A stretch of DNA of 47,180 nucleotides from Actinomycetota bacterium. GTDB taxonomy: Bacteria > Actinomycetota > UBA4738 > HRBIN12. Location of the stretch: positions 1 through 47,180 of the forward strand of contig JAJPHY010000113.1 in NCBI GenBank assembly GCA_021325015.1, in the 5' to 3' direction. The position numbers and the translations under genes are program-made. Every line of letters begins with the position of its first letter. Position 1 is the first letter of the stretch. Positions 8,521 through 47,178 of the stretch are shown here, piece by piece. The notes beneath the pieces are model-generated. The model was not told the origin of the DNA. It saw only the letters and a program-made list of their open reading frames with translations, and did not search any database.

Positions 8521-8524
8521 GCCG

Positions 8525-9673: not shown

Positions 9674-9677
9674 CGCT

Positions 9678-9692
9678 CGCGGGCAACCCGCG
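9678..9692 (+). terminator. Possible GC hairpin terminator after acyl-CoA dehydrogenase
   Basis: CGCGGG-CAA-CCCGCG starts 5 nt after the TAG; no U-tract. Confidence 0.3.
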
Positions 9693-9791
9693 CGCGGGTC
9701 GGCGGGTCCGCGCTCAAGTCCTCCGGGCAGGGCGACGAGGGAGATGGTTGAAAGGGCCGGCCCCTGGGAGCACGCTGAGCGGGCGCGGCCG

Positions 9792-9821
9792 TTGACATTT
9801 CGGCACCTCGTTCGATAGCAA
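9792..9821 (+). promoter_or_regulatory. Candidate sigma70-type promoter for the M23 peptidase
   Basis: Perfect TTGACA at 9792-9797; weak -10 (TAGCAA) at 9816-9821. Confidence 0.4.
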
Positions 9822-9831
9822 GGTCACCCAC

Positions 9832-11001
9832 GTGAGAGCGAACCGGGGACGCTCGAGCTCCATCTGGCGCCGGCTGGTCGGCGCGGCCGCCGCGTTCGCG
9901 CTCCTCGGGCTGCTCGCGCCGGCGGGCGCGCGGGCCGATATCAAGGGTCAGCTCGACCGGGCGAAGGCTCGCCTGGAGCAGCTCAAGCGCGAGATCGCTC
10001 ACCAGTACGAGGTCGTCAAGGCGATCGAGTCCCGGGCAGCGGCCGTCGCGGCCCGCCTGCTCGACGCGAAGGACGCCTACGATCAGATCACCGCCGAGCT
10101 CAACCGGACCCGCGACGAGCTCGCGCGGGCGAGCGAGCGGTACACGGAGCTCCGCGACCGCCTGAACGCGCGCGCCCGCGAGGCGTACATGCAGGGCGCG
10201 GGCAGCCCGATCGAGTTCCTGCTCTCGGCCACCTCGTTCGCCGACCTCACCGATCGCGTCGAGTACGTCGACGCCGTCACGCAGAGCGATGCCGACCTCG
10301 CGAACCAGGTGCAGAACCTCAAGAACGACCTCTCGGCCAAGGAGCGTGACCAGCAGCGGCTGCAGGAGCGGCAGGCGCAGAAGCTGAACGAGATCCAGAC
10401 GCAGCAGGCGCAGGTCGACGCGGAGCTCGCGCAGGCCAAGCGGGTCTACGACGACATCCAGCGAAAGAAGGACGAGGCGGCGAGGCTCGTCGAGAAGCTC
10501 GGGAAGCAGTACCGGAACTACCTGCAGTCCCTCTACAACATCGGGTACAACCCCAACGGGGTCTTCAAGGTCTGTCCGGTGGGGCAGCCGCACATCCTGA
10601 CCGACTCGTTCGGCGCGCCGCGCTACGCGGGCGGGTTTCACCTGCACGCCGGCAACGACATCATGGCCCCGATGGGCACGCCGATCCTCGCGCCCTTCGA
10701 CGGGACCGCCCGCTCGAGCTCCAACGGGCTGGGAGGTCTCGCCGAGTACGTGTACGGCCCCACCGGCTACGTCTACAACGCGCACCTCTCCGCCTACTCG
10801 GCCAGCTCGAACGGACCGGTGCACGCCGGCGACGTCATCGGCTACGTCGGCAACACGGGCGACGCCGCCGGCGGCCCGACCCACGACCACTTCGAGTGGC
10901 ACCCGAACCAGATCCCCTCGAACTGGCCGGCGAGCCCCTACGGCTACTCGGTCATCGGCAGCGCGGTGAACCCCTACCCGCTGCTCTCGCAGGTCTGCTG
11001 A
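9832..11001 (+). CDS. Secreted coiled-coil M23 metallopeptidase (murein hydrolase/activator)
   Basis: Signal peptide, PcsB-like coiled coil (FLLSATSFADL), HAGND (HxxxD), YNAHL, HDHFEW (HxH). Confidence 0.9.
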   Translation: MRANRGRSSSIWRRLVGAAAAFALLGLLAPAGARADIKGQLDRAKARLEQLKREIAHQYEVVKAIESRAAAVAARLLDAKDAYDQITAELNRTRDELARASERYTELRDRLNARAREAYMQGAGSPIEFLLSATSFADLTDRVEYVDAVTQSDADLANQVQNLKNDLSAKERDQQRLQERQAQKLNEIQTQQAQVDAELAQAKRVYDDIQRKKDEAARLVEKLGKQYRNYLQSLYNIGYNPNGVFKVCPVGQPHILTDSFGAPRYAGGFHLHAGNDIMAPMGTPILAPFDGTARSSSNGLGGLAEYVYGPTGYVYNAHLSAYSASSNGPVHAGDVIGYVGNTGDAAGGPTHDHFEWHPNQIPSNWPASPYGYSVIGSAVNPYPLLSQVC

Positions 11002-18136: not shown

Positions 18137-18158
18137 TGTCGGTGGCTCCTCCTACCAT
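18137..18158 (+). promoter_or_regulatory. PafBC/RecA-NDp-type DNA-damage promoter
   Basis: TGTCGG (18137-42)-N10-TACCAT (18153-58), then 7 nt to in-frame GTG at 18166. Confidence 0.7.
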
Positions 18159-25124: not shown

Positions 25125-26300
25125 GTGCCGGCCGATCCCGAGCGCTTCGAGCTTCCCGAGGAGCTCCGGGAGTTCCGGACGCTCGTCCGGAAGATCGCGG
25201 AGGAGCGCATCGCCCCCAGGGCGGCCGAGATCGACGAGACCGACGAGTGGCCCGAGGACGTCTACAAGGTGCTCGTCGAGAACGAGCTCATGAGCGTGGG
25301 CTACCCCGAGGAGCACGGCGGCTCCGGTGGAGGCTCGCTCGCGTTCGGGGTGCTGATCGAGGAGCTCTCTCGCGTGTCGGCCGGCGTCTCGCTCACCCCG
25401 CTCGTCGCCAAGCTCGGCGTGATCCCGCTCGCCGTGGCGGGGGACACGGCCAAGGAGGCCGAGATGACCCGCGGGATCTGTCGCGGCGAGCTCCTCATGT
25501 CGTACGCGCTCACCGAGCCCGGCGCCGGCTCGGACCCCGCCTCGATGACCACGCGGTGGCGGCGCGACGGCGACGAGATCGTCCTGTCCGGGACCAAGCG
25601 CTTCATCACCGGCGCCGGCGTCTCGCACGCGTACGTCGTCTTCGCGACCAGCGACCCGGAGCTGCGGGCCAAGGGGGTCTCCGCGTTCCTCGTCATGCGG
25701 GACGACCCCGGCGTCTCCTTCGGCCGCAAGGAGGAGAAGATGGGGATCCGCGGATCGCCGACGCGCGAGGTGATCCTCGACGACGCGCGGATCCCCGCCG
25801 ACCGCCTGATCGGGGAGGAGGGGGCGGGGTTCCGGTACGCGATGCGAACGCTCGACTACTCGCGCCCGGCGATCGCCGCGCAGGCGCTCGGCATCGCGCA
25901 GGGGGCGTTCGACGTGGCGTCCCGGTACGCGACGGAGCGCCGGCAGTTCGGGCGGCCGATCGCGGAGTTCGAGGGCATCCAGTTCATGCTCGCGGACATG
26001 GCGATGAAGCTCGAGGCCGCCCGCCTGCTCGTGTACCGCGCGCTCGCGCTCTGCGACGCCGGCGATCCCCGGATGACGTACACGTCGGCCGTCGCCAAGT
26101 GCTTCGCGTCGGACGCGGCGATGGCGATCACCACGGACGCCGTCCAGGTCCTGGGGGGCTACGGGTACATGCGCGAGTATCCGGTCGAGCGCATGATGCG
26201 CGACGCCAAGATCACGCAGATCTACGAGGGCACGAACCAGATCCAGCGCGTGGTGATCGCGCGGGAGATCCTGCGCGGCATCCAGGCGTCGGCCGGCTGA
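25125..26300 (+). CDS. Acyl-CoA dehydrogenase (short-chain type)
   Basis: YALTEPGAGSD, GTKRFIT, KMGIRGSPT, QVLGGYGY, QIYEGTNQIQR. Confidence 0.93.
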   Translation: MPADPERFELPEELREFRTLVRKIAEERIAPRAAEIDETDEWPEDVYKVLVENELMSVGYPEEHGGSGGGSLAFGVLIEELSRVSAGVSLTPLVAKLGVIPLAVAGDTAKEAEMTRGICRGELLMSYALTEPGAGSDPASMTTRWRRDGDEIVLSGTKRFITGAGVSHAYVVFATSDPELRAKGVSAFLVMRDDPGVSFGRKEEKMGIRGSPTREVILDDARIPADRLIGEEGAGFRYAMRTLDYSRPAIAAQALGIAQGAFDVASRYATERRQFGRPIAEFEGIQFMLADMAMKLEAARLLVYRALALCDAGDPRMTYTSAVAKCFASDAAMAITTDAVQVLGGYGYMREYPVERMMRDAKITQIYEGTNQIQRVVIAREILRGIQASAG

Positions 26301-26325
26301 GGGCCGGCGGTCCGCTCGGTTGTCG

Positions 26326-26360
26326 GCATCCGGCCGGCGCCTCAGGCGCCGGCCGGATGC
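26326..26360. terminator. Perfect 16-bp hairpin between convergent genes (likely bidirectional terminator)
   Basis: GCATCCGGCCGGCGCC-TCA-GGCGCCGGCCGGATGC. Confidence 0.65.
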
Positions 26361-27754
26361 ACCTGGTTCTCGGACTCGGCGGGGGGCCGGGTCCCGGGGA
26401 GGGGCTCGGCGGCCGGCACGATCGGGGGCATCCCGATGATCACGCGCGGCCCGCGGTCGCCGGTCTCGACCACGACCTCTTCGTCATCGCCCGACTCCGG
26501 CCCCTGCGCCTCGGCGTTCAGCTCTCGAAACGCGGCGAGCCCGCTCGCCCGGGTCCGGAACCGGAACTCCTCGACCTCGGCGCGCGCCTCCCGCAGCTCG
26601 GCCTGGAGGCGCTCGGCCTGCTCGCGCCACTCGCGCGCCTCCGCTTCGTGGCGCGTCGCGCGCTCCTCGGCGGCCTGGAGCCGTCCGGTCAGCTCGTCGA
26701 GCTGGGTGCGTTGCAGGCTGAGGCGCTCCCGCAGGGCGTTCGCGTCGAGCTCGGCGGCCGCGAACCGCTCCCGGAGGGCGGTCTGCTCGCGTTGCTCGGC
26801 CTCGAGCCGCTCGGCCATCTCGCGCACCTGCTCGCGCAGGACCCGGGCGTCGTCCTCGTCCCTGGCGGAGGCCGACGCGCGCTCCTCGGCGCGAGCCTCG
26901 AGCTCCGCGATCTCCTGCAGCGCCTGCCGGTACTGCTCCTGCAGGCCCCAGTAGCTCTGCTCGGCCGCGCGCGCCCGGGCCTCGGCCGCGATCAGCGCCT
27001 CGTCCGGGGAGGAGGTCTCTGCGCCGGAGGCGGGTGCCTGCGTCCGGGGCGCGGGCTCGGGTTCGTTCGAATCGACCGTTGCCGGCTCGGGCGGTCCCGG
27101 GCGGTCGGCCGGCGTGGACCGCTTCCACGGGCGCGGCGGGACGTAGACCACGGGCTCGGACCGGCGCCGCCGGCGAAGGCCGGGCACGAGCGACAGGACC
27201 GAGAGCAGGAACAGGACGGCGAGCGCGACCTGGGGGATGCGCCACCAGCTCGCGCCGGCCTCGACCGGCGCGAGCGGCCGGTCGAGCTCGGCGACCGCGG
27301 TCTGGCCGCCTCCCGCTCCGATCCGGACGAACGTCTGCAGCTCCCCGCCCACGACGCGATGCAGGAGCCCCCCCGAGGACGCCGAGGTCAGGACCTCGCC
27401 CATCGACGGGTCGCGCGTTCCGACCAGAGCCCGGTCCAGGTCGAACAGGACCCGGCCCTGCGCCGACCAGAGCGTCACGCGCTCGATCGGGCCGGGCCCG
27501 GGGATGCGCTCCTGTACGGCTCGCAGGATCTGCGCGTACCGCTGGCCGGCGATCGGCCCGCGGAGGTCCTTCTGGGTGAGCAGGGGCGCGAGGGCCCCCT
27601 CCGCGGTCGCACGGGCGCTCGCGGCGGCGTCGTCGATCAGGCCGCTCCGCGCGATGCCTCCGAGGATGAAGCAGACGCCGACGCCGGTCGCGAGGGCCAC
27701 CGGCAGGCCCACCCGGATCACCCGACGCCGACGGCTCGTGAGCGATGCGAACAT
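26342..27754 (-). CDS. Membrane protein: TM-sensor-like domain-TM, Pro-rich linker, long coiled coil; function unknown
   Basis: GAAGGGGG RBS before ATG 27754; ERVTLWSAQGRVLF (Cache-like pattern); EAR/ELE-rich heptads. Confidence 0.7.
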   Translation of the reverse strand: MFASLTSRRRRVIRVGLPVALATGVGVCFILGGIARSGLIDDAAASARATAEGALAPLLTQKDLRGPIAGQRYAQILRAVQERIPGPGPIERVTLWSAQGRVLFDLDRALVGTRDPSMGEVLTSASSGGLLHRVVGGELQTFVRIGAGGGQTAVAELDRPLAPVEAGASWWRIPQVALAVLFLLSVLSLVPGLRRRRRSEPVVYVPPRPWKRSTPADRPGPPEPATVDSNEPEPAPRTQAPASGAETSSPDEALIAAEARARAAEQSYWGLQEQYRQALQEIAELEARAEERASASARDEDDARVLREQVREMAERLEAEQREQTALRERFAAAELDANALRERLSLQRTQLDELTGRLQAAEERATRHEAEAREWREQAERLQAELREARAEVEEFRFRTRASGLAAFRELNAEAQGPESGDDEEVVVETGDRGPRVIIGMPPIVPAAEPLPGTRPPAESENQVHPAGA

Positions 27755-27945
27755 CTGGCCCCCTTCCGCAACCAAGGCCACGTCCCGGTTATCGGCACCT
27801 CATCACCGGTCGGCGTAGTCCCCCCGAAGGCGGATGGTCCCGGCGGGCTGGCTCCAACTGACTACCGGAGGCGGGGGCGTGCGTTGGTCCTAGGTCCTTG
27901 GGCGGGGTCGCTCCGCGCGTCGTGGGCCGTCGGTAAGCTTCGCCC

Positions 27946-28899
27946 ATGCTCGCGCTTCGGGCGGACCCATGGACGCCGGACCACGGCATGGGGTTCGAGG
28001 CCAGGCTCGAGGAGCCGCCGGGCCGCGCGGAGCCGTTCGTCGAGACCGGGGACTGGTCCAGGCCGCTCGCCCCGACTCCCGCCGAGCCCGCGCCCGTGTG
28101 GTTCATCGACGGGGTGCGCCGCATCGACCAGCGCCTGATCGCGACCGACGGCGACCGTCGCGCCTACGGGCTGTTCGGGACGTTCGCGGTCGGGGCCGTC
28201 CGCTCCGACGGACGGGCGGTCTTCGCCGATGACCGCGTCGAGCGGGCGCTCGTTCTCGGCTCGGGCGCGCAGCACGACCCGGTGACAGTGCGGGTCGGGG
28301 AGGCCGATCTCGTGTACCGCTCGGTGAGCGAGCCCGGGGACGACCCGGACGACCCGCTGCTTCGCCTGCAGAAGCTGATGCAGGCCGGCGAGACCGAGCT
28401 CGCGATCCGCGTCTCCGACCAGGGGGGCGAGCTCGTGCTCGCCGACGGCCGGTGGACGTCGCAGCGGCCGACGGCCGGTCCGGTCGTCGGTGTCGTGAAG
28501 CGCTGGTCGCGCGAGTACCTGGATCCGGAGCTCGAGCGCCTGGTGGCGTCGCTCGGGCCGGGCGAGCGGACGCCGCTGTTCGGCCTCGCCGACCCCGACC
28601 AGCCGGTCGAGCGCTACGCGTGGTACGTGCGGCTCGTGCCGCTCCGCCCGCTCTGGCACGACCGCGCGGGGGTGGTCCGCTGCGAGATCCGAGCTGGGGT
28701 CGGGCTGGATCGAGCCGTCCGGATCGCGGACCGCGTCACGTCGCTGCTGCCCGGTTTCGCCGGCCGGCCGACCGACCCGAGGTACCCGCAGAACCTCACC
28801 CCGATCGCGGGGCTCGAGGGCTGGCTGCAGCACCGGATGGGCCACCGGGCGCTCGTGCGGCGCGCGATCCAGACGTGGTTGACGAGTCGGGGAGGATGA
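27946..28899 (+). CDS. nurA: NurA-family 5'-3' nuclease
   Basis: WFIDGVRRID, VLADG, VGVVK, PQNLTPIAGLE; TAAGCT-6nt-ATG; directly before herA. Confidence 0.8.
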   Translation: MLALRADPWTPDHGMGFEARLEEPPGRAEPFVETGDWSRPLAPTPAEPAPVWFIDGVRRIDQRLIATDGDRRAYGLFGTFAVGAVRSDGRAVFADDRVERALVLGSGAQHDPVTVRVGEADLVYRSVSEPGDDPDDPLLRLQKLMQAGETELAIRVSDQGGELVLADGRWTSQRPTAGPVVGVVKRWSREYLDPELERLVASLGPGERTPLFGLADPDQPVERYAWYVRLVPLRPLWHDRAGVVRCEIRAGVGLDRAVRIADRVTSLLPGFAGRPTDPRYPQNLTPIAGLEGWLQHRMGHRALVRRAIQTWLTSRGG

Positions 28900-30587
28900 G
28901 GGACGTGCAGGAGACGAGCGAGCAGGTCGGGATGGTCCTCGGGACCGAGGACGCCACGCCGCTCACGTTCTGGGTCGGCGTCGCGCCCGACGCCTACCTG
29001 CAGCTCGACGACGCGGTGGTGGTCGACACCGAGGTGCCGGGCCGGGGTCCGCTCCGCATCGCCGGCATCGTCCAGGACGTTCGGGCCCGGCACGAGGGCG
29101 CGCAGTTCGACACCGACGTGTTCCTGGTCGACCGCGGCGTGCTGCCGGTCGACACGGCGGTCGCCGCCGAGGTGGTCGCGACGAGGTTCGAGCCCGAGGT
29201 GTTCGTGCCGCCGATGCCGGGCCTGCCCGCGTTCCGCGCCCGCGGGAAGGACCGCGACGAAGCCCTCTACTTCGACCAGATGCAGCGGCGGGTGCCGGCC
29301 GGGCTCACGCGCGACGGCGAGCCGGTGTTCCTCGACCTGGACTTCCTGGACGGCTCGCGCGGCGCGCACGTGAACATCAGCGGCGTCTCGGGCGTCGCGA
29401 CGAAGACGACGTACGCGCTGTTCCTGCTCTACGCGCTGTTCCACTCGGACGTGCTCGGTCGCGCGGCCGTCAACACCAAGGCGATCGTGTTCAACGTGAA
29501 GGGCGAGGACCTCATGTGGCTCGACACGCCGAACGCGAAGCTGCAGGAGGCCGACCGCGAGGACTACGAGCGGCTCGGCCTGCCGGCGGGCGCGTTCGAG
29601 TCGGTCGGGCTGTGGGCGCCGGTCCGCCCCGACGCCGGCGGAGGGGCGATCCCGCACGTCGAGGGGCGCTCGACCGGCGTCACCGCCTACTACTGGACGG
29701 TGCGCGAGTTCGTGCGCGAGCGGTTCCTGCGGTTCCTGTTCGCGGAGGCCGAGGACGAGCGCTCGCAGATCGCCGACCTGGTTGCGCGGGTCGAGTCCCA
29801 CCTCGACCGCGAGTGCGAGGACGACCCCGAGCACGACGCGACGGTCGTGTTCGGCGGCGACCCGGTCGAGGACTTCGACGCGCTCTGCGAGGTCATCCGC
29901 CACAACGTCGAGGACGAGAACTCGCCCTGGCGAGGACGTCTCTCGGACGCGACGGTCGCGGCCTTCGTCCGCCGGCTCGATGCCGCGAGGTTCCGCATGG
30001 GCCACCTGATCTGGGGCCGGCGCGCCGAGCACCCCGAGCGCCACCGGATCGACTGGGAGTCGAGCCAGGTCACGGTCGTCGACATCCACAACCTCCACGA
30101 CCGGGCCAAGCGGTTCGTGACCGGGGTCGTGATCAAGCGGCTGTTCGAGCACAAGGAGCGGATGGGCCATCGCGAGCCGCTCGCGTTCCTCGTGCTCGAC
30201 GAGCTGAACCGCTACGCCCCGCGTGAGGGCTGGAGCCCGATCAAGGAGGTGCTGCTCGACGTCGCCGAGCGCGGGCGCTCGCTCGGCATGATCCTGGTCG
30301 GGGCCGAACAGACCGCGAGCGAGGTCGAGCGCCGGATCATCGCGAACAGCGCGTTCCGCGTGGTCGGGAGGCTCGACACCGCGGAGGCGCAGCGGAGCGA
30401 GTACGGGTTCCTGCCGGCGGTCACGCGCTCCAGGGCCTCGATCCTCAAGCCCGGCTCGATGATCCTGCAGCAGCCGCACATCCCGGTACCGCTGCAGATC
30501 CGCTTCCCGTTCCCGTCGTGGGCCACGCGCGCCGACGAGGCCGCCGATGCGGGCGAGGATCCGTTCGAGCGCTTCCGAGACGAGTAG
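28896..30587 (+). CDS. herA: HerA/FtsK-like ATPase (bacterial HerA type)
   Basis: N-terminal HAS barrel; variant Walker A ISGVSGVATKT; LVLDELNRYAP; ERGRSLG; GAEQ. Confidence 0.88.
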   Translation: MRDVQETSEQVGMVLGTEDATPLTFWVGVAPDAYLQLDDAVVVDTEVPGRGPLRIAGIVQDVRARHEGAQFDTDVFLVDRGVLPVDTAVAAEVVATRFEPEVFVPPMPGLPAFRARGKDRDEALYFDQMQRRVPAGLTRDGEPVFLDLDFLDGSRGAHVNISGVSGVATKTTYALFLLYALFHSDVLGRAAVNTKAIVFNVKGEDLMWLDTPNAKLQEADREDYERLGLPAGAFESVGLWAPVRPDAGGGAIPHVEGRSTGVTAYYWTVREFVRERFLRFLFAEAEDERSQIADLVARVESHLDRECEDDPEHDATVVFGGDPVEDFDALCEVIRHNVEDENSPWRGRLSDATVAAFVRRLDAARFRMGHLIWGRRAEHPERHRIDWESSQVTVVDIHNLHDRAKRFVTGVVIKRLFEHKERMGHREPLAFLVLDELNRYAPREGWSPIKEVLLDVAERGRSLGMILVGAEQTASEVERRIIANSAFRVVGRLDTAEAQRSEYGFLPAVTRSRASILKPGSMILQQPHIPVPLQIRFPFPSWATRADEAADAGEDPFERFRDE

Positions 30588-31805: not shown

Positions 31806-34364
31806 ATGCGGCCGCTCCGGCTCTCGCTCAAGGGCTTCACGGCCTTCCGCGACGAGCAGACGATCGACTTCGAGGGCCTGGACCTGTTCGCGATCGCCGG
31901 CCCGACCGGCTCCGGAAAGTCCTCGATCCTGGACGCGATCACGTACGCGCTGTTCGGGTACGTCGACCGCGTCGGCAAGCAGGTGGGCCAGCTCGTCAGC
32001 CAGGGTCAGCCGCGCATGGCCGTCACGCTCGAGTTCGCCGTCGGCGAGCGGCGGTTCCGCGTGACGCGAACCACGCCCGCGCGAGGGGCGTCGCGGATCC
32101 TGCTCGAGCGGTGGGACGAGGGCGAGTGGCGCCAGGCCGGCGAGGGGGCCGACCGCGTCCGCGATGCCGACGCGATGATCGAGCGCGCGCTCGGACTCGA
32201 CTACGCCGCGTTCACCCGCTCGGTCCTGTTGCCCCAGGGCAAGTTCGCGGAGTTCCTGGTCGGCGACGCGGCCTCGCGCCGCAAGATCCTGACCGAGCTC
32301 CTCGGGCTCGAGCTGTTCGAGCGCCTGCGGGAGCGCGCCGGCGAGGCCCACCGCAGCGCGCAGTCGGTGGTGGAGGCCAACGAGCGGATGCTCCGGACCG
32401 AGTACGCGGGGGTCACCGAGGAGCGCATCCAGGAGGCCGAGGCCGGCGCGGAACGCGCCGCCGACCTCGACCGGAGACTGGGGGCGGCCGAGCGTTCGGT
32501 CCGCGAGATCGCCGGTCGGTGGGACGTCGTGGAGCGTGAGGTCGCGGAGCTCGCGGCGCGGGCGAACGAGGCGAGCGAGCTCGCCGAGGCCGCGGCGCGA
32601 TCCTCGGAGTCGCTCACGACGCTGCTCGAGCGCCTGGCCGAGGCCGAGGGGGAGGCCAAGCGCGCCGCGCGGGCCGCCAACGCCGCCGCGAAGGAGGCCA
32701 CGAAGGCGGCCGACGCGCTCGCCAAGGCCGAGGCCGATTGGGGGCGTGCCAGGGACCTCGGCGCCCTGCTCGCCAAGGCCGAGGGGCTGGCCGAGGCTAG
32801 GGAGGGGCTCGCCGGCTTGGAGGCCGAGGCCAAGCGCGCGGCGGGCGTGCCCCCGAAGCTCGAGAAGGCCCTCGCGACGGCCGAGCGCGAGCTCGAGATG
32901 CGCGTGCGGGCGGTCGAGGCGGCGATGGCGGCGCTGGAGGGCGCCCGCGAGCAGCTCGACGCCGCCCAGCACGCGAATCTCGTCGCCGCCGTCCGCGCGG
33001 GAGTTCGCGTGGGGGAGGCCTGCCCGGTCTGCGGGGCCAAGGTCACGGCCCTGCCGAAGGCGGGCCGGGCGCCGGCGCTCGAGAAGGCGAAGGCCTCGCT
33101 GGAGAAAGCGGAGGCGCTCGCGGAGGCTGCCGGCGGCGAGCTCGAGGAGGCCCGGACGGCGCGCGACACCGCCGAGCGCGACCTGAAGGAGGCCCGCCGG
33201 GAGCACCAGCGCCTGCAGGCCGAGCTCGAGCGGCGACGGGGCGAGCTCGCCGGCGCCGAGGCGTCGGTGGCCTCCGCGTTCGGGGGAGCGCTTCCGGCGG
33301 ACCCGGTGGCCGCCGTGCAGGAGCGTCTCCAGGTGCTCGAGCGGCTCGAAGAGGCCGCTCGCGAGGCGGCCCGGGCCGCGTCGGAGGCGAAGGACGCGGC
33401 ACAGGACGCCGATCGCCGGCGGGACGGCGTCGCCGCCGACGTCGCGGAGGAGCGCGGGCGGCTGGGCGGCCTCCCGGTCGCCCGGCTGATCGCCGGGGCG
33501 CGCGAGCTCGGGGTCGCGGCCCCCGAGCCGCCACCGCTCGCGGCAGCGAAGACCGCGCAGGCGCTCGCCGCCGCGGCGGCCGGGCTCGCGGATTCCCTGT
33601 CGAACCTCGGCCGGGCGCTCGAGGAGCGGGCGTCGGAGCGCGCGGCGGGCGAGCGCGAGCTGCTCGATGAGGCCCTGCGCGCCGTCGACGGGCTGGTGGA
33701 GCCGGCGTCCTCGCTCGCGGAGCTCGTGGAGTCGGTCGCCGAGCGGCGGCGGCGGGCGACGGCCGAAGCGGCCACCGCGCAGCAGCAGGCCGAGGCCCTC
33801 CGGGCGCGCCTGGAGAACGCGCGGCGACTGGCGGAGGAGGTCGAGGTGCAGCGCGGGCGCGCCGCGCGGTTCGAGGCGCTCGCGCGCGAGCTCCGGAACG
33901 ACCGCGTGGTCGCGTTCCTCCAGCTCGAGGCGCTGCAGGTGCTCGCCGCGGCGGGGTCCGAGCACCTTTCGACGCTCTCGGGCGGTCGTTACCGGCTCGC
34001 CTACGAGGGGGACGAGTTCTTCGTGATCGACACGTGGAACGGCGACGAGCAGCGAAGCGCCCGCACCCTCTCGGGAGGGGAGACCTTCCTCGCCTCGCTC
34101 GCGCTGGCCCTCGCGCTGTCCGAGCAGGTGCGCTCGCTCTCGCTCACCGATACGGCGCGGCTCGACAGCCTGTTCCTCGACGAGGGGTTCGGCACGCTCG
34201 ATCCGGAGACGCTCGAGGTCGTCGTCGAGGCGATCGAGCAGCTCGGCGGCGACGGGCGGATGGTCGGAGTCATCACGCACGTGCGCGAGCTCGCGATCCG
34301 GCTCCCGACCCGGATCGAGGTCGAGAAGTCGCCGCGGGGCAGCCGCCTCCAGCTCGTCCGGTAG
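31806..34364 (+). CDS. sbcC: SbcC/Rad50 SMC-family ATPase
   Basis: GPTGSGKS, zinc hook CPVC, LSGGETF, FLDEGFGTLD, ITH. Confidence 0.93.
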   Translation: MRPLRLSLKGFTAFRDEQTIDFEGLDLFAIAGPTGSGKSSILDAITYALFGYVDRVGKQVGQLVSQGQPRMAVTLEFAVGERRFRVTRTTPARGASRILLERWDEGEWRQAGEGADRVRDADAMIERALGLDYAAFTRSVLLPQGKFAEFLVGDAASRRKILTELLGLELFERLRERAGEAHRSAQSVVEANERMLRTEYAGVTEERIQEAEAGAERAADLDRRLGAAERSVREIAGRWDVVEREVAELAARANEASELAEAAARSSESLTTLLERLAEAEGEAKRAARAANAAAKEATKAADALAKAEADWGRARDLGALLAKAEGLAEAREGLAGLEAEAKRAAGVPPKLEKALATAERELEMRVRAVEAAMAALEGAREQLDAAQHANLVAAVRAGVRVGEACPVCGAKVTALPKAGRAPALEKAKASLEKAEALAEAAGGELEEARTARDTAERDLKEARREHQRLQAELERRRGELAGAEASVASAFGGALPADPVAAVQERLQVLERLEEAAREAARAASEAKDAAQDADRRRDGVAADVAEERGRLGGLPVARLIAGARELGVAAPEPPPLAAAKTAQALAAAAAGLADSLSNLGRALEERASERAAGERELLDEALRAVDGLVEPASSLAELVESVAERRRRATAEAATAQQQAEALRARLENARRLAEEVEVQRGRAARFEALARELRNDRVVAFLQLEALQVLAAAGSEHLSTLSGGRYRLAYEGDEFFVIDTWNGDEQRSARTLSGGETFLASLALALALSEQVRSLSLTDTARLDSLFLDEGFGTLDPETLEVVVEAIEQLGGDGRMVGVITHVRELAIRLPTRIEVEKSPRGSRLQLVR

Positions 34365-34384
34365 GCGACTCCTATACTCGCCGC

Positions 34385-34708
34385 ATGGACCGGGAGAGAC
34401 GCGCGCGCCAGCTTGCGGCGGAAGCCGAGCGGATCACCGCGTTCCTGGTCGCGCGTGGCGCGACGCTCGTGCTGGCCTTCGGCTCGTTCGCCCGCGGGCA
34501 CGTGAGGTCCCAGAGCGATCTCGACATGATCGCGGTCATGGAGAGCGACCTGCCGTTCGTGAAGCGACTCGGCGAGCTGTACGGGGAGATCGTCCCGCAC
34601 GTAGGCCTCGACCTCCTCGTCTACACGCCAAAGGAGTGGCAGGAGATGCAGCGGCGGTCCTTTATCCGGCGCGCGCTGGCCGAGGGGAAGGTGCTCCATG
34701 CAGCCTGA
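34385..34708 (+). CDS. Minimal nucleotidyltransferase (MNT) antitoxin
   Basis: FGSFARG...SDLD; TATACT-6nt-ATG. Confidence 0.85.
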   Translation: MDRERRARQLAAEAERITAFLVARGATLVLAFGSFARGHVRSQSDLDMIAVMESDLPFVKRLGELYGEIVPHVGLDLLVYTPKEWQEMQRRSFIRRALAEGKVLHAA

Positions 34709-35107
34709 CCCCGCGGCGGAGGGCCGGCGCTGGCTCGAGCAGCCCGGCGGGACCTGAGCGATGCCCGATACCTCCGGGACGGCGACCGGCACAACCTGGC
34801 CTGCTTCCACTCGCAGCAGGCGGCCGAGAAGGCGCTGAAGGCGTTCCTCCTGCTGCGCGAGGCCGAGGACGTCTGGGGACACTCCGTCGCGGAGCTGTGC
34901 AAGCGCGCAGCGGCCATCGACCCGGCCTTCTCGGCGCTCGAACGCGATGGGGCGAAGCTGGACCGGCTCTGTATCCCGACCCGTTACCCGAACGGCCTCC
35001 CCGGTGGGTTGCCGGTCGACGCCTTCGACCGGGAGGACGCGGACGCGGCCATCGAACGTGCGACTCGAATCGTGGAGACGGTCTCCAAGGCGTTCGGCGC
35101 TGCATAG
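34698..35107 (+). pseudogene. HEPN-domain protein with a 1-bp deletion frameshift near 34742
   Basis: ATG 34698 reads MQPDPAAEGRRWLEQ then stops; adding one G gives QARRDLSDARYL...ACFHSQQAAEKALKA...GHSV...IPTRYP to TAG 35107. Confidence 0.85.
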
Positions 35108-35145: not shown

Positions 35146-36324
35146 CTACGGAGGGCCGCGGTCCTCGAGCGCCGAGCCGTCCGGTCGCAGGAACTCCGGA
35201 CGGCCGCTCACCATCCGCACGCCGAAGAGCCGGTGCACCGCCCGGTGATGCGGCCGGCAGAGCAGCACCAGGTTGGAGAGCGCCGTCCTGCCGCCGTCGG
35301 CCCAGTGCACGACGTGGTGCGCGTCGCACCAGCCCGGAGGCCGTCCGCAGCCGGGGAACCGGCACCCGCCGTCCCGGATCACGAGCGCTCGACGGAGCGC
35401 GGGCGACACGACCGGCGTCCTGCGGCCCGCGTCCAGGGGTTCGGAGCGCCCTGCCGTCACGATTCGCGCCACCGAGGCGTCGCACGCGAGCCGCCGGGCC
35501 GCCTCAGGCGTGATCACTCCGGCCTCGTCGAGCTCGCACCGCCGGCCCGTCCGGCCCTCGAGGGTCTCGAGGTCCACGGTCACGGTGAGATGCGGCCGCT
35601 CGCCGGCCACGATCGGACGGTCCACCGAGTCCAGGTAGCGGCGGCAGATCTCTCCGAGGGCGTCCGCCCGGCGCTGCGCGTACGTGCGCAGGTCGCCCGT
35701 CGACCCGACGTCGGCGTCGATCACGGCCCGAAGCGCGGTGATCAGGGTCTGTCCGGTCTCGGGGTCGAGGTCGCCGTCCACCCGGACCATTCCCTCCAGG
35801 GTGGGTGAGACGTGGAGCCGCCGGAGCCCGTGGCGCCACTCGGCCTCGTCCTCGGCTCCGGCCGCATCGGCAGCCTGCCGCCAGTACGCGACCAGGCGGC
35901 GCAGGTCGCGCACCGGCACGCTCCTCGCCGCCTCCACCAGGGTCTCCTCGACTCCGGGGAACTCGTCCGGCCGCGACTCGGCCGCCGCGACCAGCACCGC
36001 CGCGGCCGACGGCGTCACGTCGCCGGCGGCCAGCGCCGAGCGGGTGAGCGGCATGCGCTCCAGCGCCCGCGCCCACCGCACGTAGCGACCGGCGCACGAG
36101 CCCGCGATCCGCAGCCGGTGGACGAGCCACATCGTCAGCGACAGGAGGCCGTCGCGCGCGAACGCGCCCCGGCGCTCGACCTCGGCCACGCGCCGGGCGC
36201 GCTCCGCGACGAGCGCCCCCATCGCCCGCTCGATCTCGACGAGCGATGCCTCGAGCTCATCGTCCGAGGCGAACGCGAGGTCCTCGGTGGCAAGCTCGTC
36301 GATGCCGGATCGGAGAGTGCTCAT
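35146..36324 (-). CDS. DUF222 + HNH endonuclease (13E12/Rv1128c-like) protein
   Basis: QRRADAL, RRLACDA, RDGGCRFPGC...CDAHH...GGRTALSNLVLLCRPHHRAVH; TAGCCT-7nt-ATG. Confidence 0.9.
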   Translation of the reverse strand: MSTLRSGIDELATEDLAFASDDELEASLVEIERAMGALVAERARRVAEVERRGAFARDGLLSLTMWLVHRLRIAGSCAGRYVRWARALERMPLTRSALAAGDVTPSAAAVLVAAAESRPDEFPGVEETLVEAARSVPVRDLRRLVAYWRQAADAAGAEDEAEWRHGLRRLHVSPTLEGMVRVDGDLDPETGQTLITALRAVIDADVGSTGDLRTYAQRRADALGEICRRYLDSVDRPIVAGERPHLTVTVDLETLEGRTGRRCELDEAGVITPEAARRLACDASVARIVTAGRSEPLDAGRRTPVVSPALRRALVIRDGGCRFPGCGRPPGWCDAHHVVHWADGGRTALSNLVLLCRPHHRAVHRLFGVRMVSGRPEFLRPDGSALEDRGPP

Positions 36325-36337
36325 GGGCTCGAGGCTA

Positions 36338-36353
36338 TCGAACACGTGTTCGC
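36338..36353. promoter_or_regulatory. LexA (SOS) box 1, abutting the DUF222-HNH -10
   Basis: TCGAAC-ACGT-GTTCGC vs actinobacterial consensus TCGAAC-N4-GTTCGA. Confidence 0.85.
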
Positions 36354-36394
36354 CTGTCTGTGAGCCGGATCACACCCGGGCTGAAATCACCCGC

Positions 36395-36431
36395 TCGAAC
36401 GCGTGTTCGTGTCGGTGGGGGATGGCACGAT
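36395..36431 (+). promoter_or_regulatory. LexA box 2 plus overlapping PafBC-type rightward promoter
   Basis: TCGAAC-GCGT-GTTCGT (36395-36410); TGTCGG (36410-15)-N10-CACGAT (36426-31); ATG at 36439. Confidence 0.6.
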
Positions 36432-36791
36432 CCTCCGCATGGAGCTCACCATCGTGGAGTCGGGGGTTCCGGACCGCCGGCCGATCGACACGCGATCCGC
36501 AGAAGTGCTTGGATACGCAACAGCGGACGGACTGGTAGCGGATGCGATGTTTCGCGGTCGCCACGCGGTGCGAGGTTCCTGTGGACCTCCGGCTGTCCCG
36601 CAAAGGGTGAAGCAACGCGCTCGCCCTTCTCGGGTCGTGCTGGGCTGGTTGCGGGGTGGGCCAATGCTTAAGTTCCGGGCGGAACCGGAGCTGCTTCGCC
36701 AAGCCAAGACAGCCGTCCCAACTTCCGCCTCCACCCCTGGCGGAGTCCGATCACTTCCCCTCGGATCAAACCGTACGTGAGGAGGTCAGCC

Positions 36792-42620
<5,829 letters not shown>

Positions 42621-42624
<4 letters not shown>

Positions 42625-43550
42625 GCCGCATCGACCTCAAGGGTGTGGATGGCTCCAATCCGCTCGGCTTCATGGCGGCACTAGGACTGCTTCGGATCGT
42701 TCCCGGCACGAAGCTCGCCTTCTTGGACGACGGTTCGTACCAGGCGTTTGTCGTCGGACTCGACATCAGCGAGTCCGACCTCAAGAAGCACATCTTGCGG
42801 CTCATCGCACGCGACGTCCAGTCCGCTAGAAAGCCGAGCGCCCCGTGGTGCTTCACATACACGAAGGCCGCGACCAGGAAGAAGCGCTCGGAGGTGGTCG
42901 CTGACCTCAAACCGCCGCCAGATGACCCCAACTTCACCAAGTTCCTGCAGGGCTGTGTCGAGGCCTGGCGCAAGGGTGACGAAGAAGCCGCAGCGTACGC
43001 CGCCGCCTATTTCACGGATGTGGCGGTCGATGGCAAGCGCAACACTAAGCCGACCGCATTCCATTTCACCGCCGCAAATCAGACCTTCCTCGGCCAAGTC
43101 GAAAGCATTCGGGATTTAGTAACCGAGGAATGGGTCGAGCAGGCGTTGTTCGAGGGCCACGCGGAGCGGCCGGGCACCAACCTTCGTTGGGACCCGGGTT
43201 CCGAGCGCAACTGGGCGTTGCTGGCTGAAGATCCGAACAAGAAAGGCACCCGCGTCAACGCGCCTCTCGAGTGGCTTGCCTTTCGCGGCTTGCCCTTGCT
43301 ACCGAGCTTCCCTCAAGGCACGAGAATCGCCACGACGGGCGTCGTCGGAAGGGGTGACGACATGACCTTCACCTGGCCGCTCTGGTCGGCTCCGGCTTCG
43401 CTGCAGACGACGCGCTCTCTCCTTCAAGTCGATTGGACCGGGAATGCGAAAGAGCGCGCTGCGCGCGGCATCTTCGCGATTTGTAGTTCCAGGATTCGGC
43501 GAACGAGTCAAGGCTTTGGCAACTTTGCGCCGTCGGCCGTCATAAGTTGA
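42621..43550 (+). CDS. Short Cas8-type large subunit of type I-G (Csb3-like)
   Basis: ATGA overlap with extended cas3; DGSNPLGFMAALG, KPTAFHFTA, WDP, EWLAFRGLPLLP; position after cas3. Confidence 0.7.
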
Positions 43551-44202: not shown

Positions 44203-44604
44203 TCACACGGCCTTCACCCTCACGATCGCCTCCAGGCCGGCGAAGTCGGAGGGATTGCGCGTGTACAGCGGAAGCCCGTTGGCCGCCGCGGTCGCCGCGA
44301 TCAAGAGATCTGCGAGGCGGGCTCGGCCCGTCCGCCCGGCGGACTTCGCCGCCGCGAACACGAGGCCGTACGCTCGCGCCGCCTGGGCATCGAATGGCAG
44401 CGGATCCCAGGTCGCGGCCGCCCACTGCAGCCGATCCTGGCGCCGGGCCCGTTCGTGCACGTCGCCGGTCGCGTGCGGACCGGCGGCCAGCTCGGCCAGC
44501 GTCACCGCGGAGATGGCCGACTCATCGGGAAGGAGGGCAGGTTGGATCACGTCGTGGTCGATCACAACCGATGTGTCGAGCAGGCCGCGGCTTGGTTCAA
44601 TCAC
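44203..44604 (-). CDS. vapC: PIN-domain toxin
   Basis: LLDTSVVI, SAVTLAEL, DLLIAATA, LYTRNPSDF. Confidence 0.92.
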   Translation of the reverse strand: MIEPSRGLLDTSVVIDHDVIQPALLPDESAISAVTLAELAAGPHATGDVHERARRQDRLQWAAATWDPLPFDAQAARAYGLVFAAAKSAGRTGRARLADLLIAATAAANGLPLYTRNPSDFAGLEAIVRVKAV

Positions 44605-44845
44605 CGGCAGACTGGTCCACCACGGCGTCCAAGTCGGCGCGGAACCGCGTGGCATCCACTCTGGGCGCCCGCACCGCGGCTTCGGCGATCACCGCTCTGG
44701 GCGCGAACCTCCGCGGCTGAATCGGCCGCAGCTCGGCAACAGGGACGCCGTTGCGGGTGATGATGATGGTCTGTCCGGCCTGCGCCTCCCGGAGGATCGC
44801 CGCCGACTGGTTTCGGAGCTCGCGCTGGGAGATGATCCTGGTCAC
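44597..44845 (-). CDS. vapB: Phd/YefM-family antitoxin
   Basis: ISQRELRNQSAAILREAQAGQTIIITRNGVPVAEL; overlaps the vapC start. Confidence 0.9.
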   Translation of the reverse strand: MTRIISQRELRNQSAAILREAQAGQTIIITRNGVPVAELRPIQPRRFAPRAVIAEAAVRAPRVDATRFRADLDAVVDQSAGD

Positions 44846-44951: not shown

Positions 44952-46622
44952 ATGACGGTCGATGGGAGTGCATCTTCCGAGAACGGGGCCCCCGACCTCG
45001 TGCCGGCGCGGATGCTCAACGAGTTCGTCTACTGCCCGCGCCTGTTCTACCTCGAGTGGGTCCAGGGGGAGTGGGCCGAGAGCGAGGACACGCTCGAGGG
45101 CGCATCGGTCCATCGCAGGGTGGAGGAGGAAACCGGCCGGCTACCACCGCCCGAGGAGCTCGACCCCGAGGACCGGATCGCGGCGCGCTCGGTGCTCCTT
45201 TCCGCTCCCGACCTGGGCCTGATCGCTCGCATGGACCTGCTGGAGGGGGAGGGCGGGGCGGTGCGGCCCGTCGACTACAAGAAGGGCGCGCCGGGGCCGC
45301 AAGGTCCGTGGGAGCCCGAGGTCATCCAGCTCTGTGCCCAGGGGCTCGTCCTGCGTGAGAACGGGTACCGGTGCGACGAGGGCGTCCTGTACTATGCGGC
45401 GCCCCGGAAGCGGTTCGCGGTTGTCTTCGATGACCCGCTCGTCGAACGGACCAAGGAGTACCTCGTCCGGCTTCGCGACTCGGTCGAGGCACCGATCCCT
45501 CCGCCCCCGCTGGTCGACAGCCCCAAGTGTCCCCGCTGCTCGCTCGTCGGGATCTGCTTGCCGGACGAGGTCTCGCTTCTGCGGGGCGCGCCGCTCGAGG
45601 AGGTGCGTCGTCTCGTCCCCGCGCGCGACGACGCCACGCCGCTGTACGTCCAGGAGCAGGGCGCGACGGTGGGGAAGTCGGGAGAGCGTCTCGTCGTTCG
45701 CCGACGGGATGCGGATGACGTGCCGGTTCGGCTCCTCGACGTCTCCCAGGTGTCCGTGTACGGGAACGTGCAGGTGACCGCGCAGGCCATCCGAAGCCTC
45801 GCCGAACGCGAGATCCCCGTCTTTCATCACACCTACGGCGGGTGGCTCGCGGCGGTCACCACGGGCATCCACTCCCGCAACGTCGAGCTCCGCGTGGAGC
45901 AGTACCGGGTGGCCGACGAGGAGGCACGGGCGCTTCCGTTCGCCCGTGCGTTCGTCCTCGGGAAGCTCAGGAATCAGCGCACGCTCCTTCGCCGGAACTC
46001 GCCCTCGTCTCCCCGAGGGACCCTCGCCGAGCTCACGCGGATGGCCCGTCTGGTTCAGGAGGCGCCCTCCCGCGATCGCCTGCTCGGTCTCGAGGGGATC
46101 GGAGCCCGCGCCTACTTCGCTCACTTCCCGGAGCTGCTTCGGGATGCGATGGGGTTCGAGCTGTCGGGCCGCGAACGCCGCCCGCCTCCCGACCCGGTGA
46201 ACGCGCTGCTCTCGTTCCTGTACGGGCTCCTCGTGAAGGACGCGGTGCACGCGCTCGTCGCGGTCGGGCTGGATCCCTACCGTGGTCTGTATCACCGTCT
46301 CCGGTACGGGCGGCCTTCGCTGGCGCTGGATCTGGTCGAGGAGTTCAGACCGCTCGTCGCGGACTCCACGGTCCTGGCGCTGGTGAACAACCGCGCCATC
46401 ACGCGTTCGGACTTCATCCGGAGAGGTCGCGCATGTGCCCTCACGCAGACGGCTCGGCGACAGGTGATCCGGGCGTATGAAGCGCGCATGGACACGCTGA
46501 TCCGCCACCCGATCTTCGGCTACCAGGTGAGCTACCGGCGGGTGATCGAGGTGCAAGCCAGGCTGCTCGCACGAGCGATCGCCGGCGAGATCCCCGCCTA
46601 CCGTCCGTTCACGACGCGATGA
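44952..46622 (+). CDS. cas1: Cas4-Cas1 fusion
   Basis: YCPRLFYL, DYKKG, KCPRCSLVGICLP (Cas4); LGLEGIGARAYF, DPVNALLSFLY, HRLRYGRPSLALDLVEEFRP (Cas1). Confidence 0.95.
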   Translation: MTVDGSASSENGAPDLVPARMLNEFVYCPRLFYLEWVQGEWAESEDTLEGASVHRRVEEETGRLPPPEELDPEDRIAARSVLLSAPDLGLIARMDLLEGEGGAVRPVDYKKGAPGPQGPWEPEVIQLCAQGLVLRENGYRCDEGVLYYAAPRKRFAVVFDDPLVERTKEYLVRLRDSVEAPIPPPPLVDSPKCPRCSLVGICLPDEVSLLRGAPLEEVRRLVPARDDATPLYVQEQGATVGKSGERLVVRRRDADDVPVRLLDVSQVSVYGNVQVTAQAIRSLAEREIPVFHHTYGGWLAAVTTGIHSRNVELRVEQYRVADEEARALPFARAFVLGKLRNQRTLLRRNSPSSPRGTLAELTRMARLVQEAPSRDRLLGLEGIGARAYFAHFPELLRDAMGFELSGRERRPPPDPVNALLSFLYGLLVKDAVHALVAVGLDPYRGLYHRLRYGRPSLALDLVEEFRPLVADSTVLALVNNRAITRSDFIRRGRACALTQTARRQVIRAYEARMDTLIRHPIFGYQVSYRRVIEVQARLLARAIAGEIPAYRPFTTR

Positions 46623-46912
46623 GCCGCCACCGATACGTGGTCTGCTACGACGTCAGGGAACCGACCCGACTCCGCCGGACGCACGACACGATGCTCGGCT
46701 TCGGGGATCCGCTCCAGTACTCGGTCTTCGTCTGCGAGCTGTCCAGCTCGGAGCGGATCCTGATGGAGGAGGCGCTGAGACGGGTGGCCGCTCTGGAGGA
46801 GGACTCGGTGTTGATCATCGATCTCGGGCCGGCGTCCGGGGTGGCCCGAGCACGGATTCGCGCCCTGGGCAAGGGACGCGTGCCCGAGCGGGAACGGCTC
46901 ACCGTGGTTTAG
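46619..46912 (+). CDS. cas2: Cas2
   Basis: YVVCYDV, GDPLQYSVF, DSVLIIDLG. Confidence 0.95.
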   Translation: MSRHRYVVCYDVREPTRLRRTHDTMLGFGDPLQYSVFVCELSSSERILMEEALRRVAALEEDSVLIIDLGPASGVARARIRALGKGRVPERERLTVV

Positions 46913-47142: not shown

Positions 47143-47178
47143 GTTTCCGCGACCAGATGGTCGCGGCCCCATTGAAGC
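47143..47178 (+). CRISPR. First CRISPR repeat (36 nt); array presumably continues beyond the window
   Basis: GTTTCCGCGACCAGATGGTCGCGGCCCCATTGAAGC; 8-bp stem CCGCGACC/GGTCGCGG; ATTGAAGC 3' end; only one copy visible. Confidence 0.8.

Follow-up and report, generated by a model that had tools for sequence, protein, structure and literature searches.

Genes and promoter elements at the locus

The sequence analysed here, referred to throughout as the window, is a 47,180-nucleotide stretch of DNA from an Actinomycetota bacterium (contig JAJPHY010000113.1, assembly GCA_021325015.1), an organism known from metagenomes only. It carries a type I-G CRISPR-Cas cassette, and our subject is the short intergenic region from which that cassette may be transcribed. 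The way in which CRISPR-Cas expression is adjusted to need has been worked out in only a few model systems. The region is bounded on the left by the start codon of a minus-strand DUF222-HNH endonuclease gene (36324) and on the right by a plus-strand ATG (36439) upstream of the first cas gene, csb1 (cas7g). Between these start codons lie 114 bp that hold two back-to-back predicted DNA-damage promoters, each with its own SOS box. Box 1 (TCGAACACGTGTTCGC, 36338-36353) is the predicted LexA operator of the HNH gene and spans -14 to -29 of the HNH start; box 2 (TCGAACGCGTGTTCGT, 36395-36410) is the predicted LexA operator of the cas-directed promoter and spans -44 to -29 of ATG 36439. Both boxes are unstranded elements, 57 bp apart from start to start, and each scores 15/16 against the mycobacterial consensus TCGAAC(N4)GTTCGA (PMC3381160), the sole deviation being the last base. 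An earlier sequence-only reading of this DNA had placed two such boxes here, and both the boxes and their spacing are borne out by the sequence.

SOS boxes with at most one mismatch number three in the 47-kb window against 0.16 expected, and three were reached in 1 of 100 shuffles. Both intergenic boxes overlap predicted core promoter elements: box 1 abuts the -10 hexamer of the HNH gene, while box 2 abuts a -26 element and covers the -35 region of the promoter that points toward cas. The G+C content falls from 0.73-0.79 to about 0.65 near 36300-36400 and then remains at 0.60-0.70 through the cas genes, so the promoter region is compositionally part of the cas island.

A LexA/PafBC-type module directed toward the cas genes

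The rightward promoter is a composite, in which TGTCGGTG-N8-CACGAT (36410-36431) overlaps box 2 by one base and is followed by CCTCCGC and then by ATG 36439. Its plus-strand parts are a PafBC-type -26 element, TGTCGG (36410..36415, positions -29 to -24), and the -10 hexamer CACGAT (36426..36431), which would occupy -13 to -8 if transcription starts at 36439. The ATG (36439..36441) begins 7 nt past the -10 and is, on geometry only, the predicted transcription start as well as a leaderless start codon. The full pattern, GAAC-N4-GTTC-N-TGTC-N13-A-N3-T, occurs once in the window and in 0 of 100 dinucleotide shuffles.

Promoters of the PafBC class, defined by ChIP-seq and cryo-EM, follow the consensus tGTCgg(N10)tA(N3)T without a -35 element; lower case marks positions conserved in no more than 50% of cases, and the GTC is nearly invariant across Actinobacteria (PMC8635444). 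The module in the window has the GTC and the -10 A and T, and its only deviation is a C for T at the first base of the -10. The sequence-only reading had described box 2 as overlapping TGTCGG-N10-CACGAT with an ATG 7 nt further on, and had listed the imperfect -10 as a caveat. The arrangement is as it said. The mismatch is also real, but it falls at a weakly conserved position of the PafBC consensus.

A simple scan of 35900-37100, crude for Actinobacteria, gave no sigma-70 -35/-10 pair, and box 2 fills the -35 region. No intrinsic terminator was found by a simple scan of the same interval, in keeping with the earlier remark that none was clearly visible ahead of cas7. The window contains no lexA gene and pafBC was not seen there; no WYL domain was present among the window open reading frames (ORFs) scanned with Pfam, a non-exhaustive scan in which four large ORFs had no Pfam match.

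Elsewhere in the window, a perfect PafBC-type motif (TGTCGGTG-N8-TACCAT, 18137-18158) is followed after 7 nt by GTG 18166 of a PD-(D/E)XK nuclease gene that extends to 19152. This motif had been picked out before as one of the same class, correctly in our view. The nuclease gene is likely a member of the PafBC regulon, and the perfect motif at 18137 suggests that this genome uses the PafBC-type promoter class beyond the cas locus.

Recurrence of the composite upstream of other type I-G operons

The composite is present in six non-redundant loci from uncultured Actinomycetota, namely the window, L020, L100, L102/103, L104/105 and L109 (L-numbers are our locus designations). In all six it points to the first type I-G cas gene, at a distance of 300-510 nt upstream of that gene, and follows one design: an SOS box abutting TGTC-N12-(T/C)A-N3-T, then 6-7 nt, then ATG. 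An alignment of the six shows that CGAAC, GTTCGTGTC, two G's, the A and T of the -10 (A2 and T6) and the ATG are invariant, while the spacers, discriminator and leader vary. TGTC is found at every locus, and its distance to the -10 A is fixed at 12 nt. Variation in box 2 is limited to the N4 spacer and the outermost palindrome base pair, of which the first base is C in L109 and the last base is T, not the consensus A, in all six. Across 115 sequences totalling 668 kb, with 81 SOS cores, we see the composite at these six loci only, and always directed toward cas genes. The neighbours on the other side differ: the window, L020 and L100 have an HNH gene, L102 and L104 have a PIN toxin gene and L109 has purH, with no HNH gene in L102/103, L104/105 or L109. 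Overall, we consider the sequence evidence strong that this cis element is conserved, under selection and tied to I-G operons. The earlier proposal of a promoter with a LexA box and a PafBC-type motif aimed at an I-G operon is strengthened by finding the same composite at five other loci.

The closest relative is L020 (contig Ga0070741_10018080), in which the HNH protein is 96% identical at the amino acid level. Homology of this locus to the window runs from 35198 to about 36570, with identities of 88-97% in the HNH gene and 79-87% in the intergenic region, and a fall to background beyond about 36570-36600. Its composite reads TCGAACATGCGTTCG-TGTCAG-N10-CACCAT-CCTCCGC-ATG. Some 510 nt downstream lies a different I-G operon that begins with cas3g (TIGR02621, 1e-164; 30% identical to the Cas3g of the window). 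Between the two modules, 6 of 47 positions differ, every one of them at a position that is degenerate in the published motifs. Under a random-placement model with 21 of the 47 positions constrained, the chance of six changes missing all constrained sites is about 0.02.

L100 is more distant, with an HNH protein 83% identical, and it has box 1 and the Crp-type site described below. Its intact composite, TCGAACGTCAGTTCG-TGTCGT-N10-TAGGCT-CGACAGC-ATG, stands 348 nt before the csb1 of a third I-G cassette, the Csb1 being 33% identical to that of the window. Read as the reverse complement of 3548-4200, this locus shows a degenerate copy of box 2 plus TGTCAG, lacking a -10, beside the HNH gene, then about 600 nt of other sequence, and then the intact composite. 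The pair of partial and intact composites looks like the footprint of a cassette replacement by recombination inside the promoter. The remaining loci (L102-L105 and L109) are relatives of the L100 cassette obtained by protein search and look-up, and their -10 hexamers are TACGCT (L102/103), TACCCT (L104/105) and TAACGT with a 6-nt discriminator (L109).

A fused architecture of this kind, with an SOS box abutting TGTC(C/G)(G/T)-N10-TANNNT, was also seen in viral contigs of high GC content: L124, where a stretch of 2.6 kb (8188-10778) has it four times, L119 (10439-10474) and L130 (1201-1236). As the fused SOS/PafBC-type architecture also occurs in these viral contigs, it is a promoter class that is not unique to cas.

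Box 1 and the divergent DUF222-HNH gene

The divergent gene (35146..36324, minus strand, start codon ATG 36324) encodes a 13E12-like protein with DUF222 and HNH endonuclease domains (PF02720, 7e-32; PF01844). At E<=1e-60 the protein has 2762 homologs, several of which are titled 'DUF222 domain-containing protein [Actinomycetota bacterium]'. For comparison of promoters we used 80 metagenomic loci encoding HNH relatives plus two found by exact look-up, which together give 63 distinct upstream regions. A GAAC-N4-GTTC core lies 18-45 nt ahead of the start codon in 50 of these, and in 30 of the 50 a TANNNT follows within 1-3 nt of the SOS box; in the upstream sequences that were printed out, the start codon usually stands about 7 nt past the TANNNT, a leaderless geometry. 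The counterpart in the window is box 1, the putative minus-strand -10 hexamer TAGCCT (36332..36337, 7 nt before the start codon and likewise leaderless in geometry) and ATG 36324. Because an SOS core is found at a comparable place in 50 of the 63 HNH upstream regions, box 1 is best described as a conserved predicted operator of the DUF222-HNH gene, separate from the cas-directed promoter. The sequence-only reading had assigned both boxes to a single cas promoter. That assignment does not stand, and the 63 HNH upstream regions led us to reject it.

The HNH promoter also contains a perfect Crp/Fnr-type palindrome, TGTGAGCCGGATCACA (TGTGA-N6-TCACA; 36359..36374, unstranded), which is the sole such match in the window. 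It is centred at -42.5 from the HNH start and at -72.5 from the predicted cas start. A similar palindrome occurs in 38 of the 63 HNH upstream regions, and its centre lies at -41/-42, a class-II-like position, in 26 of the 33 that also have an SOS box. This suggests joint control of 13E12-like genes by LexA and a factor of the Crp family. To our knowledge, a Crp-type palindrome at -42 has not been described previously for the 13E12 family.

A second group of HNH genes has TGTCRK-N10-TANNNT in the upstream region (18 of 63, of which 14 also have an SOS box). Thus, in the 80 nt upstream of the DUF222-HNH genes of L020-L101, two interchangeable damage-promoter designs are seen: type A, with a Crp-like site, an SOS box, a TANNNT and a leaderless ATG, and type B, with a PafBC-type TGTCRK-N10-TANNNT and the SOS box downstream of the -10. 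The cas-directed module differs from type B in that its box lies directly upstream of the -26 element. For M. tuberculosis, six members of the 13E12 family were found to have LexA peaks and others the RecA-NDp motif (PMC3381160). The gene at 35146-36324 resembles this family (REP13E12) in its DUF222-HNH domain pair and in the SOS box at its promoter, and its homologs likewise carry either an SOS box or an NDp motif. This parallel accounts for box 1 only and does not extend to the cas-directed module.

Homology of the HNH module, as judged from distant relatives and from a paralogous copy in the same metagenomes, ends at about 36380, which is past the Crp-type site and before box 2. We considered whether the composite simply travels with the HNH element, and this was ruled out by that boundary and by the occurrence of the composite in loci without an HNH gene. 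The same observations bear on a simpler account of box 2, in which an ordinary SigA promoter would have box 2 as an operator for LexA only, or box 2 would be an auxiliary HNH operator, and TGTCGG would not be a PafBC site. Multi-box LexA regions do exist, for example at lexA/Rv2719c in M. tuberculosis (PMC3381160), and this account gains from the first T missing from the -10, from pafBC not being seen in the window and from PafBC binding being a prediction. However, TGTC is held invariant at a fixed 12 nt from the -10 A in six loci, and the composite is present in L102, L104 and L109, where no HNH gene is found. An HNH operator is further opposed by the end of the HNH homology short of box 2 and by the 57-bp spacing, which sets the two boxes on roughly opposite faces of the helix. 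We therefore consider a LexA-only or HNH-related role for box 2 to be improbable, and retain the composite LexA/PafBC-type module as our reading of this site.

Further left, sbcDC and then an MNT-like nucleotidyltransferase/HEPN pair (34364-35107) precede the HNH gene, the MNT/HEPN pair lying between sbcC and HNH. The order sbcC-MNT/HEPN-HNH is conserved in L100, and sbcD, sbcC and HNH are syntenic in L021. The scan of the window found no SOS box with at most one mismatch at the sbcCD 'resection operon', so the earlier idea of a single stress-gated block that would include this operon is unsupported. Upstream of sbcDC, the region 25247-30587 holds several large ORFs (e.g. 26342-27781 on the minus strand, 27946-28899 and 28452-30587) with strong coding bias and no Pfam match.

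The leader between the promoter and csb1

From ATG 36439 an ORF of 113 codons extends to a TGA (36778-36780) that lies within the Shine-Dalgarno sequence of csb1, GAGGAGG. An ORF ending at 36780 beside the cas7 ribosome-binding site had been noted before, and its end is where it was placed. That it is a real gene is a different matter, and we rejected this: it has no Pfam match, its counterpart in L020 stops at codon 25 (leaving 24 codons), all nine nucleotide differences between the two are non-synonymous, and codon bias is lacking. Its GC3 of 0.63 and GC2 of 0.60 compare with 0.68-0.86 and 0.47-0.54, respectively, in the cas genes, and it lacks the coding pattern that the HNH gene and all the cas genes show. 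We thus treat 36439..36791 (plus strand, 353 nt) as a non-coding leader. As homology to L020 continues to about 36570, the first ~130 nt are inherited together with the promoter; the rest, ~36570-36791 (about 220 nt), is an orphan segment for which no homolog was found.

Nor do we see signs of a structured RNA here. Rfam matches over 36200-36900 were at chance level only, and the fold of the leader, assessed as a single sequence, shows no unusual stability (z-score -1.12). For four L100-type leaders, RNAalifold gave a covariation term of only -0.69, no convincing sign of a structured leader or attenuator. In a search for a CreR-type element, the best alignment of the CRISPR repeat to 36325-36795 scored 17, close to the shuffle mean of 16.8. 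No self-targeting spacers were found.

These data are relevant to another reading, in which the target of the composite would be unrelated to cas, either a gene for a small leaderless protein or a small RNA induced by damage. In all six loci an ATG does stand 6-7 nt past the -10, and in L100-type loci the first ~8 codons after it are similar (MK[RS]GSP..). Against this, neither the length nor the sequence of the ORF is conserved (24 codons in L020 vs 113 in the window), its substitutions are all non-synonymous and without codon bias, neither an Rfam family nor any significant or covarying structure is evident, and the element is always beside an I-G operon in the 668 kb searched. We judge a target other than cas to be very improbable. 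The case for read-through from the composite to csb1 consists of the lack of a predicted terminator, the lack of an intervening gene, and the constant 300-510-nt distance in the six loci.

The type I-G cassette and its origin

The cassette begins with csb1/cas7g (36792..38048; PF09617, 4e-53; TIGR02570), whose relatives align from residue 1, followed by csb2 (cas5/6g; 38045..39655; TIGR02165, 3.6e-82) and cas3g (TIGR02621, 9e-200), all on the plus strand. The longest ORF for cas3g is 39421..42345, and its true start is probably near 39650, as matches to the family and to relatives begin at residues 36-84. Next is a 402-residue protein of the type I-G 'Cas3-extension family' (42342..43550, plus strand; NF049934, 7e-79). 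A protein of this family follows cas3g here and in the 15 closest loci whose sequence continues beyond cas3, and the gene is syntenic in L001-L016. A cas4g/cas1g fusion (44952-46622; NF049935, 5e-228) and cas2 (46619-46912; TIGR01573), also on the plus strand, precede a CRISPR array whose first repeat is GTTTCCGCGACCAGATGGTCGCGGCCCCATTGAAGC (47143..47178, plus strand) and which continues within this contig (L113) for 38 repeats or more. By NCBIfam equivalogs and Pfam, the locus has the Csb1/Cas7g, Csb2, Cas3g with a C-terminal HD domain, Cas4/Cas1 fusion, Cas2 and array of a type I-G system. No match to Csx17 (Cas8g) was found in the window cassette; a gene order without Csx17 is known as a variant of I-G, and we base the subtype call on the other signature genes. 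With intact genes and an array of this size, the CRISPR-Cas system looks active. A minus-strand PhdYeFM antitoxin/PIN (VapC-like) toxin pair (44203-44845) is inserted between the Cas3-extension gene and cas4/1, and the I-G cassettes of L102, L104 and L110 likewise have PIN toxin modules at their flanks.

In the genome collection, the 19 csb1 loci closest to that of the window come from metagenome-assembled genomes of Burkholderiaceae, Gammaproteobacteria, Binatia, Acidobacteriota and others. Their Csb1 proteins are 58-83% identical to that of the window (most 66-77%), and they share the order csb1-csb2-cas3g-extension. The nearest relatives of the cassette, with amino acid identities of 70-77%, belong to Proteobacteria and Binatia. 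The DNA similarity of these relatives to the window starts only at about 36799, with no homologous leader. As the relatives are non-actinobacterial and the similarity starts at that point, the cassette is a horizontally acquired I-G unit placed behind an actinobacterial promoter that serves other I-G cassettes in relatives, and it has evidently moved between phyla. Of four metagenome runs that we examined, at least three (a hot spring, a soil and a mine) hold contigs of identical sequence across the junction from the HNH 5' end through the promoter to cas7, which indicates a stable arrangement. The sequence-only reading had cautioned that the promoter might be left over from a host gene disrupted by the island. 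We agree to the extent that the present cassette is a foreign replacement, but the promoter appears to go back to another I-G cassette, earlier than or different from the present one, and not to a host gene of unrelated function.

Several observations weigh against damage control of this cassette. It is of foreign lineage relative to the promoter it now stands behind, and in none of the 19 closest cassettes do the 500 nt ahead of csb1 contain the composite or a GAAC-N4-GTTC box; when LexA-box types were scanned in the same intervals, there was a single chance-level match (L006, proteobacterial CTGT-N8-ACAG). The -10 begins with C in the window and in L020, and may be weaker than the TANNNT of L100-type loci. 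The orphan segment 36570-36791 could hold the cassette's own promoter, for example at the AT-richer TAAGTT (a TANNNT) at 36669-36674, or else a terminator that escaped recognition. The composite is also absent from the actinobacterial I-G loci L106-L108 and L110-L112 and from three Streptomyces plasmids (L141-L143). From these absences we conclude that the composite is clade-specific and not general to I-G. A scan for the motif upstream of csb1 in other genomes had been suggested earlier; across the I-G loci compared here, the composite is there in five further loci and missing from these nine and from the 19 closest relatives of the cassette. In L110 (2300-2500), the DNA just upstream of csb1 translates like the N-terminus of Cas3g (…YPYQRRIALEGLPELLKVPTGAGKT…), which suggests a rearranged or decayed cas3g-first arrangement.

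Taken together, such points make up the main rival explanation, in which the promoter is real but a relic at this locus: the foreign cassette would use its own promoter within 36570-36791, and the damage promoter would give a short leaderless RNA or peptide, or nothing. It draws on the fading of L020 homology at about 36570-36600, on cassette relatives that share nothing upstream of csb1 and lack SOS boxes, on the TAAGTT in the orphan segment, and on the precedent in L100, where a degenerate copy of box 2 and TGTCAG without a -10 persists near the HNH gene. In a relic, however, we would not look for the key module positions to be intact in both the window and L020, with changes at degenerate positions only; further, no terminator is predicted, and the junction is identical across metagenome runs. 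We regard a relic promoter as unlikely, although it deserves to be taken seriously. It is in our judgement reasonably probable that the composite is a functional LexA/PafBC-type promoter that transcribes toward the cas genes, and the question of whether it is the main driver of the present cassette is close to evenly balanced. The sequence data suggest that this immune system may be induced by DNA damage.

A model for damage-gated expression

From the elements described above, the following sequence of events can be proposed. When PafBC forms an initiation complex, the -23 to -28 element is recognised by PafB, and PafC makes the connection to sigma region 4 across what used to be the -35 site (PMC8635444); PafBC is activated by single-stranded DNA (ssDNA) (PMC11804915). 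As box 2 covers the site of PafC and sigma region 4, a LexA dimer bound there should exclude PafBC assembly. In undamaged cells, LexA on box 2 would hence occupy the place where PafBC and sigma region 4 must dock, and the promoter would be off; with no -35 element, it would also be intrinsically inactive without an activator. Upon DNA damage, RecA-ssDNA would remove LexA, and ssDNA-activated PafBC, or a PafBC-like WYL factor, would adapt SigA-RNA polymerase to the -26 element. Cleavage of LexA and activation by PafBC would both be needed, which would make the promoter effectively an AND gate. Transcription would start at or next to ATG 36439, and the transcript would run through the 353-nt leader into csb1-csb2-cas3g-extension, possibly on to cas4/1-cas2. 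The leftward HNH promoter would be repressed by LexA and possibly dependent on a Crp-family factor.

On the evolutionary side, the module belongs to the I-G cassettes of one actinobacterial clade, with the cassette swapped for a foreign one at the present locus and the promoter plus ~130 nt of leader kept. A more far-reaching proposal is that, in this clade, I-G interference and possibly adaptation have been brought into both damage regulons through an AND-gate promoter, and that the promoter and leader stub form a stable docking point for I-G cassettes exchanged by recombination, whether csb1-first (of two lineages) or cas3g-first. This we put forward tentatively, as something that falls short of being probable.

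If the model is correct, damage-coupled CRISPR-Cas logic would extend to Actinomycetota, and CRISPR-Cas would be added to the PafBC and LexA regulons. The rationale might be to hold back a processive Cas3 nuclease until prophage induction or DNA invasion is signalled by ssDNA or damage, and to supply Cas4/1-Cas2 while repair nucleases are generating DNA fragments. Cassette swapping also bears on the turnover of defence islands in which the host regulatory wiring is kept. In addition, the compact 47-bp composite could serve as a tight damage-inducible promoter.

Comparison with known systems

In a non-exhaustive literature search we came across no account of a CRISPR-Cas operon connected with LexA or PafBC, or of such regulation for I-G, in agreement with the sequence-only reading, which knew of no LexA/PafBC-controlled I-G system. 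The nearest precedent for the cis elements is mycobacterial, where dual control by LexA and PafBC (e.g. at recA P1/P2 and Rv2719c) and LexA control of 13E12 genes are established (PMC3381160, PMC8635444). The cas-directed module shares with these LexA and PafBC (RecA-NDp) genes the same two cis elements, the leaderless-type geometry and the phylum. It differs in that the target is a CRISPR-Cas operon, and in that the box is fused directly upstream of the -26 element within a single promoter, instead of belonging to a separate promoter.

Defence systems under WYL-family regulators provide a second point of comparison. CapW and BrxR, the WYL repressors of CBASS and BREX, and the CRISPR-adjacent WYL/CARF regulators also couple defence transcription to a nucleic-acid or damage signal; these are local repressors encoded within the defence island, whereas control in the present case would come from global regulators. 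The closest functional parallel is DdaA, a WYL DNA-damage activator of Moraxellaceae that controls CRISPR-Cas I-F and restriction-modification systems, with damage-coupled control demonstrated experimentally for the I-F system of Acinetobacter (PMC12392091). In both cases a WYL-family master regulator of the damage response would be wired to CRISPR-Cas promoters, such that immunity rises with damage or prophage induction. The two differ in phylum, regulator clade (PafB/PafC here), motif, mechanism (sigma adaptation) and subtype (I-G). DdaA, for which the evidence is experimental, replaces the SOS response; in the actinobacterial promoter, as read from its sequence, LexA would instead add a further layer of control.

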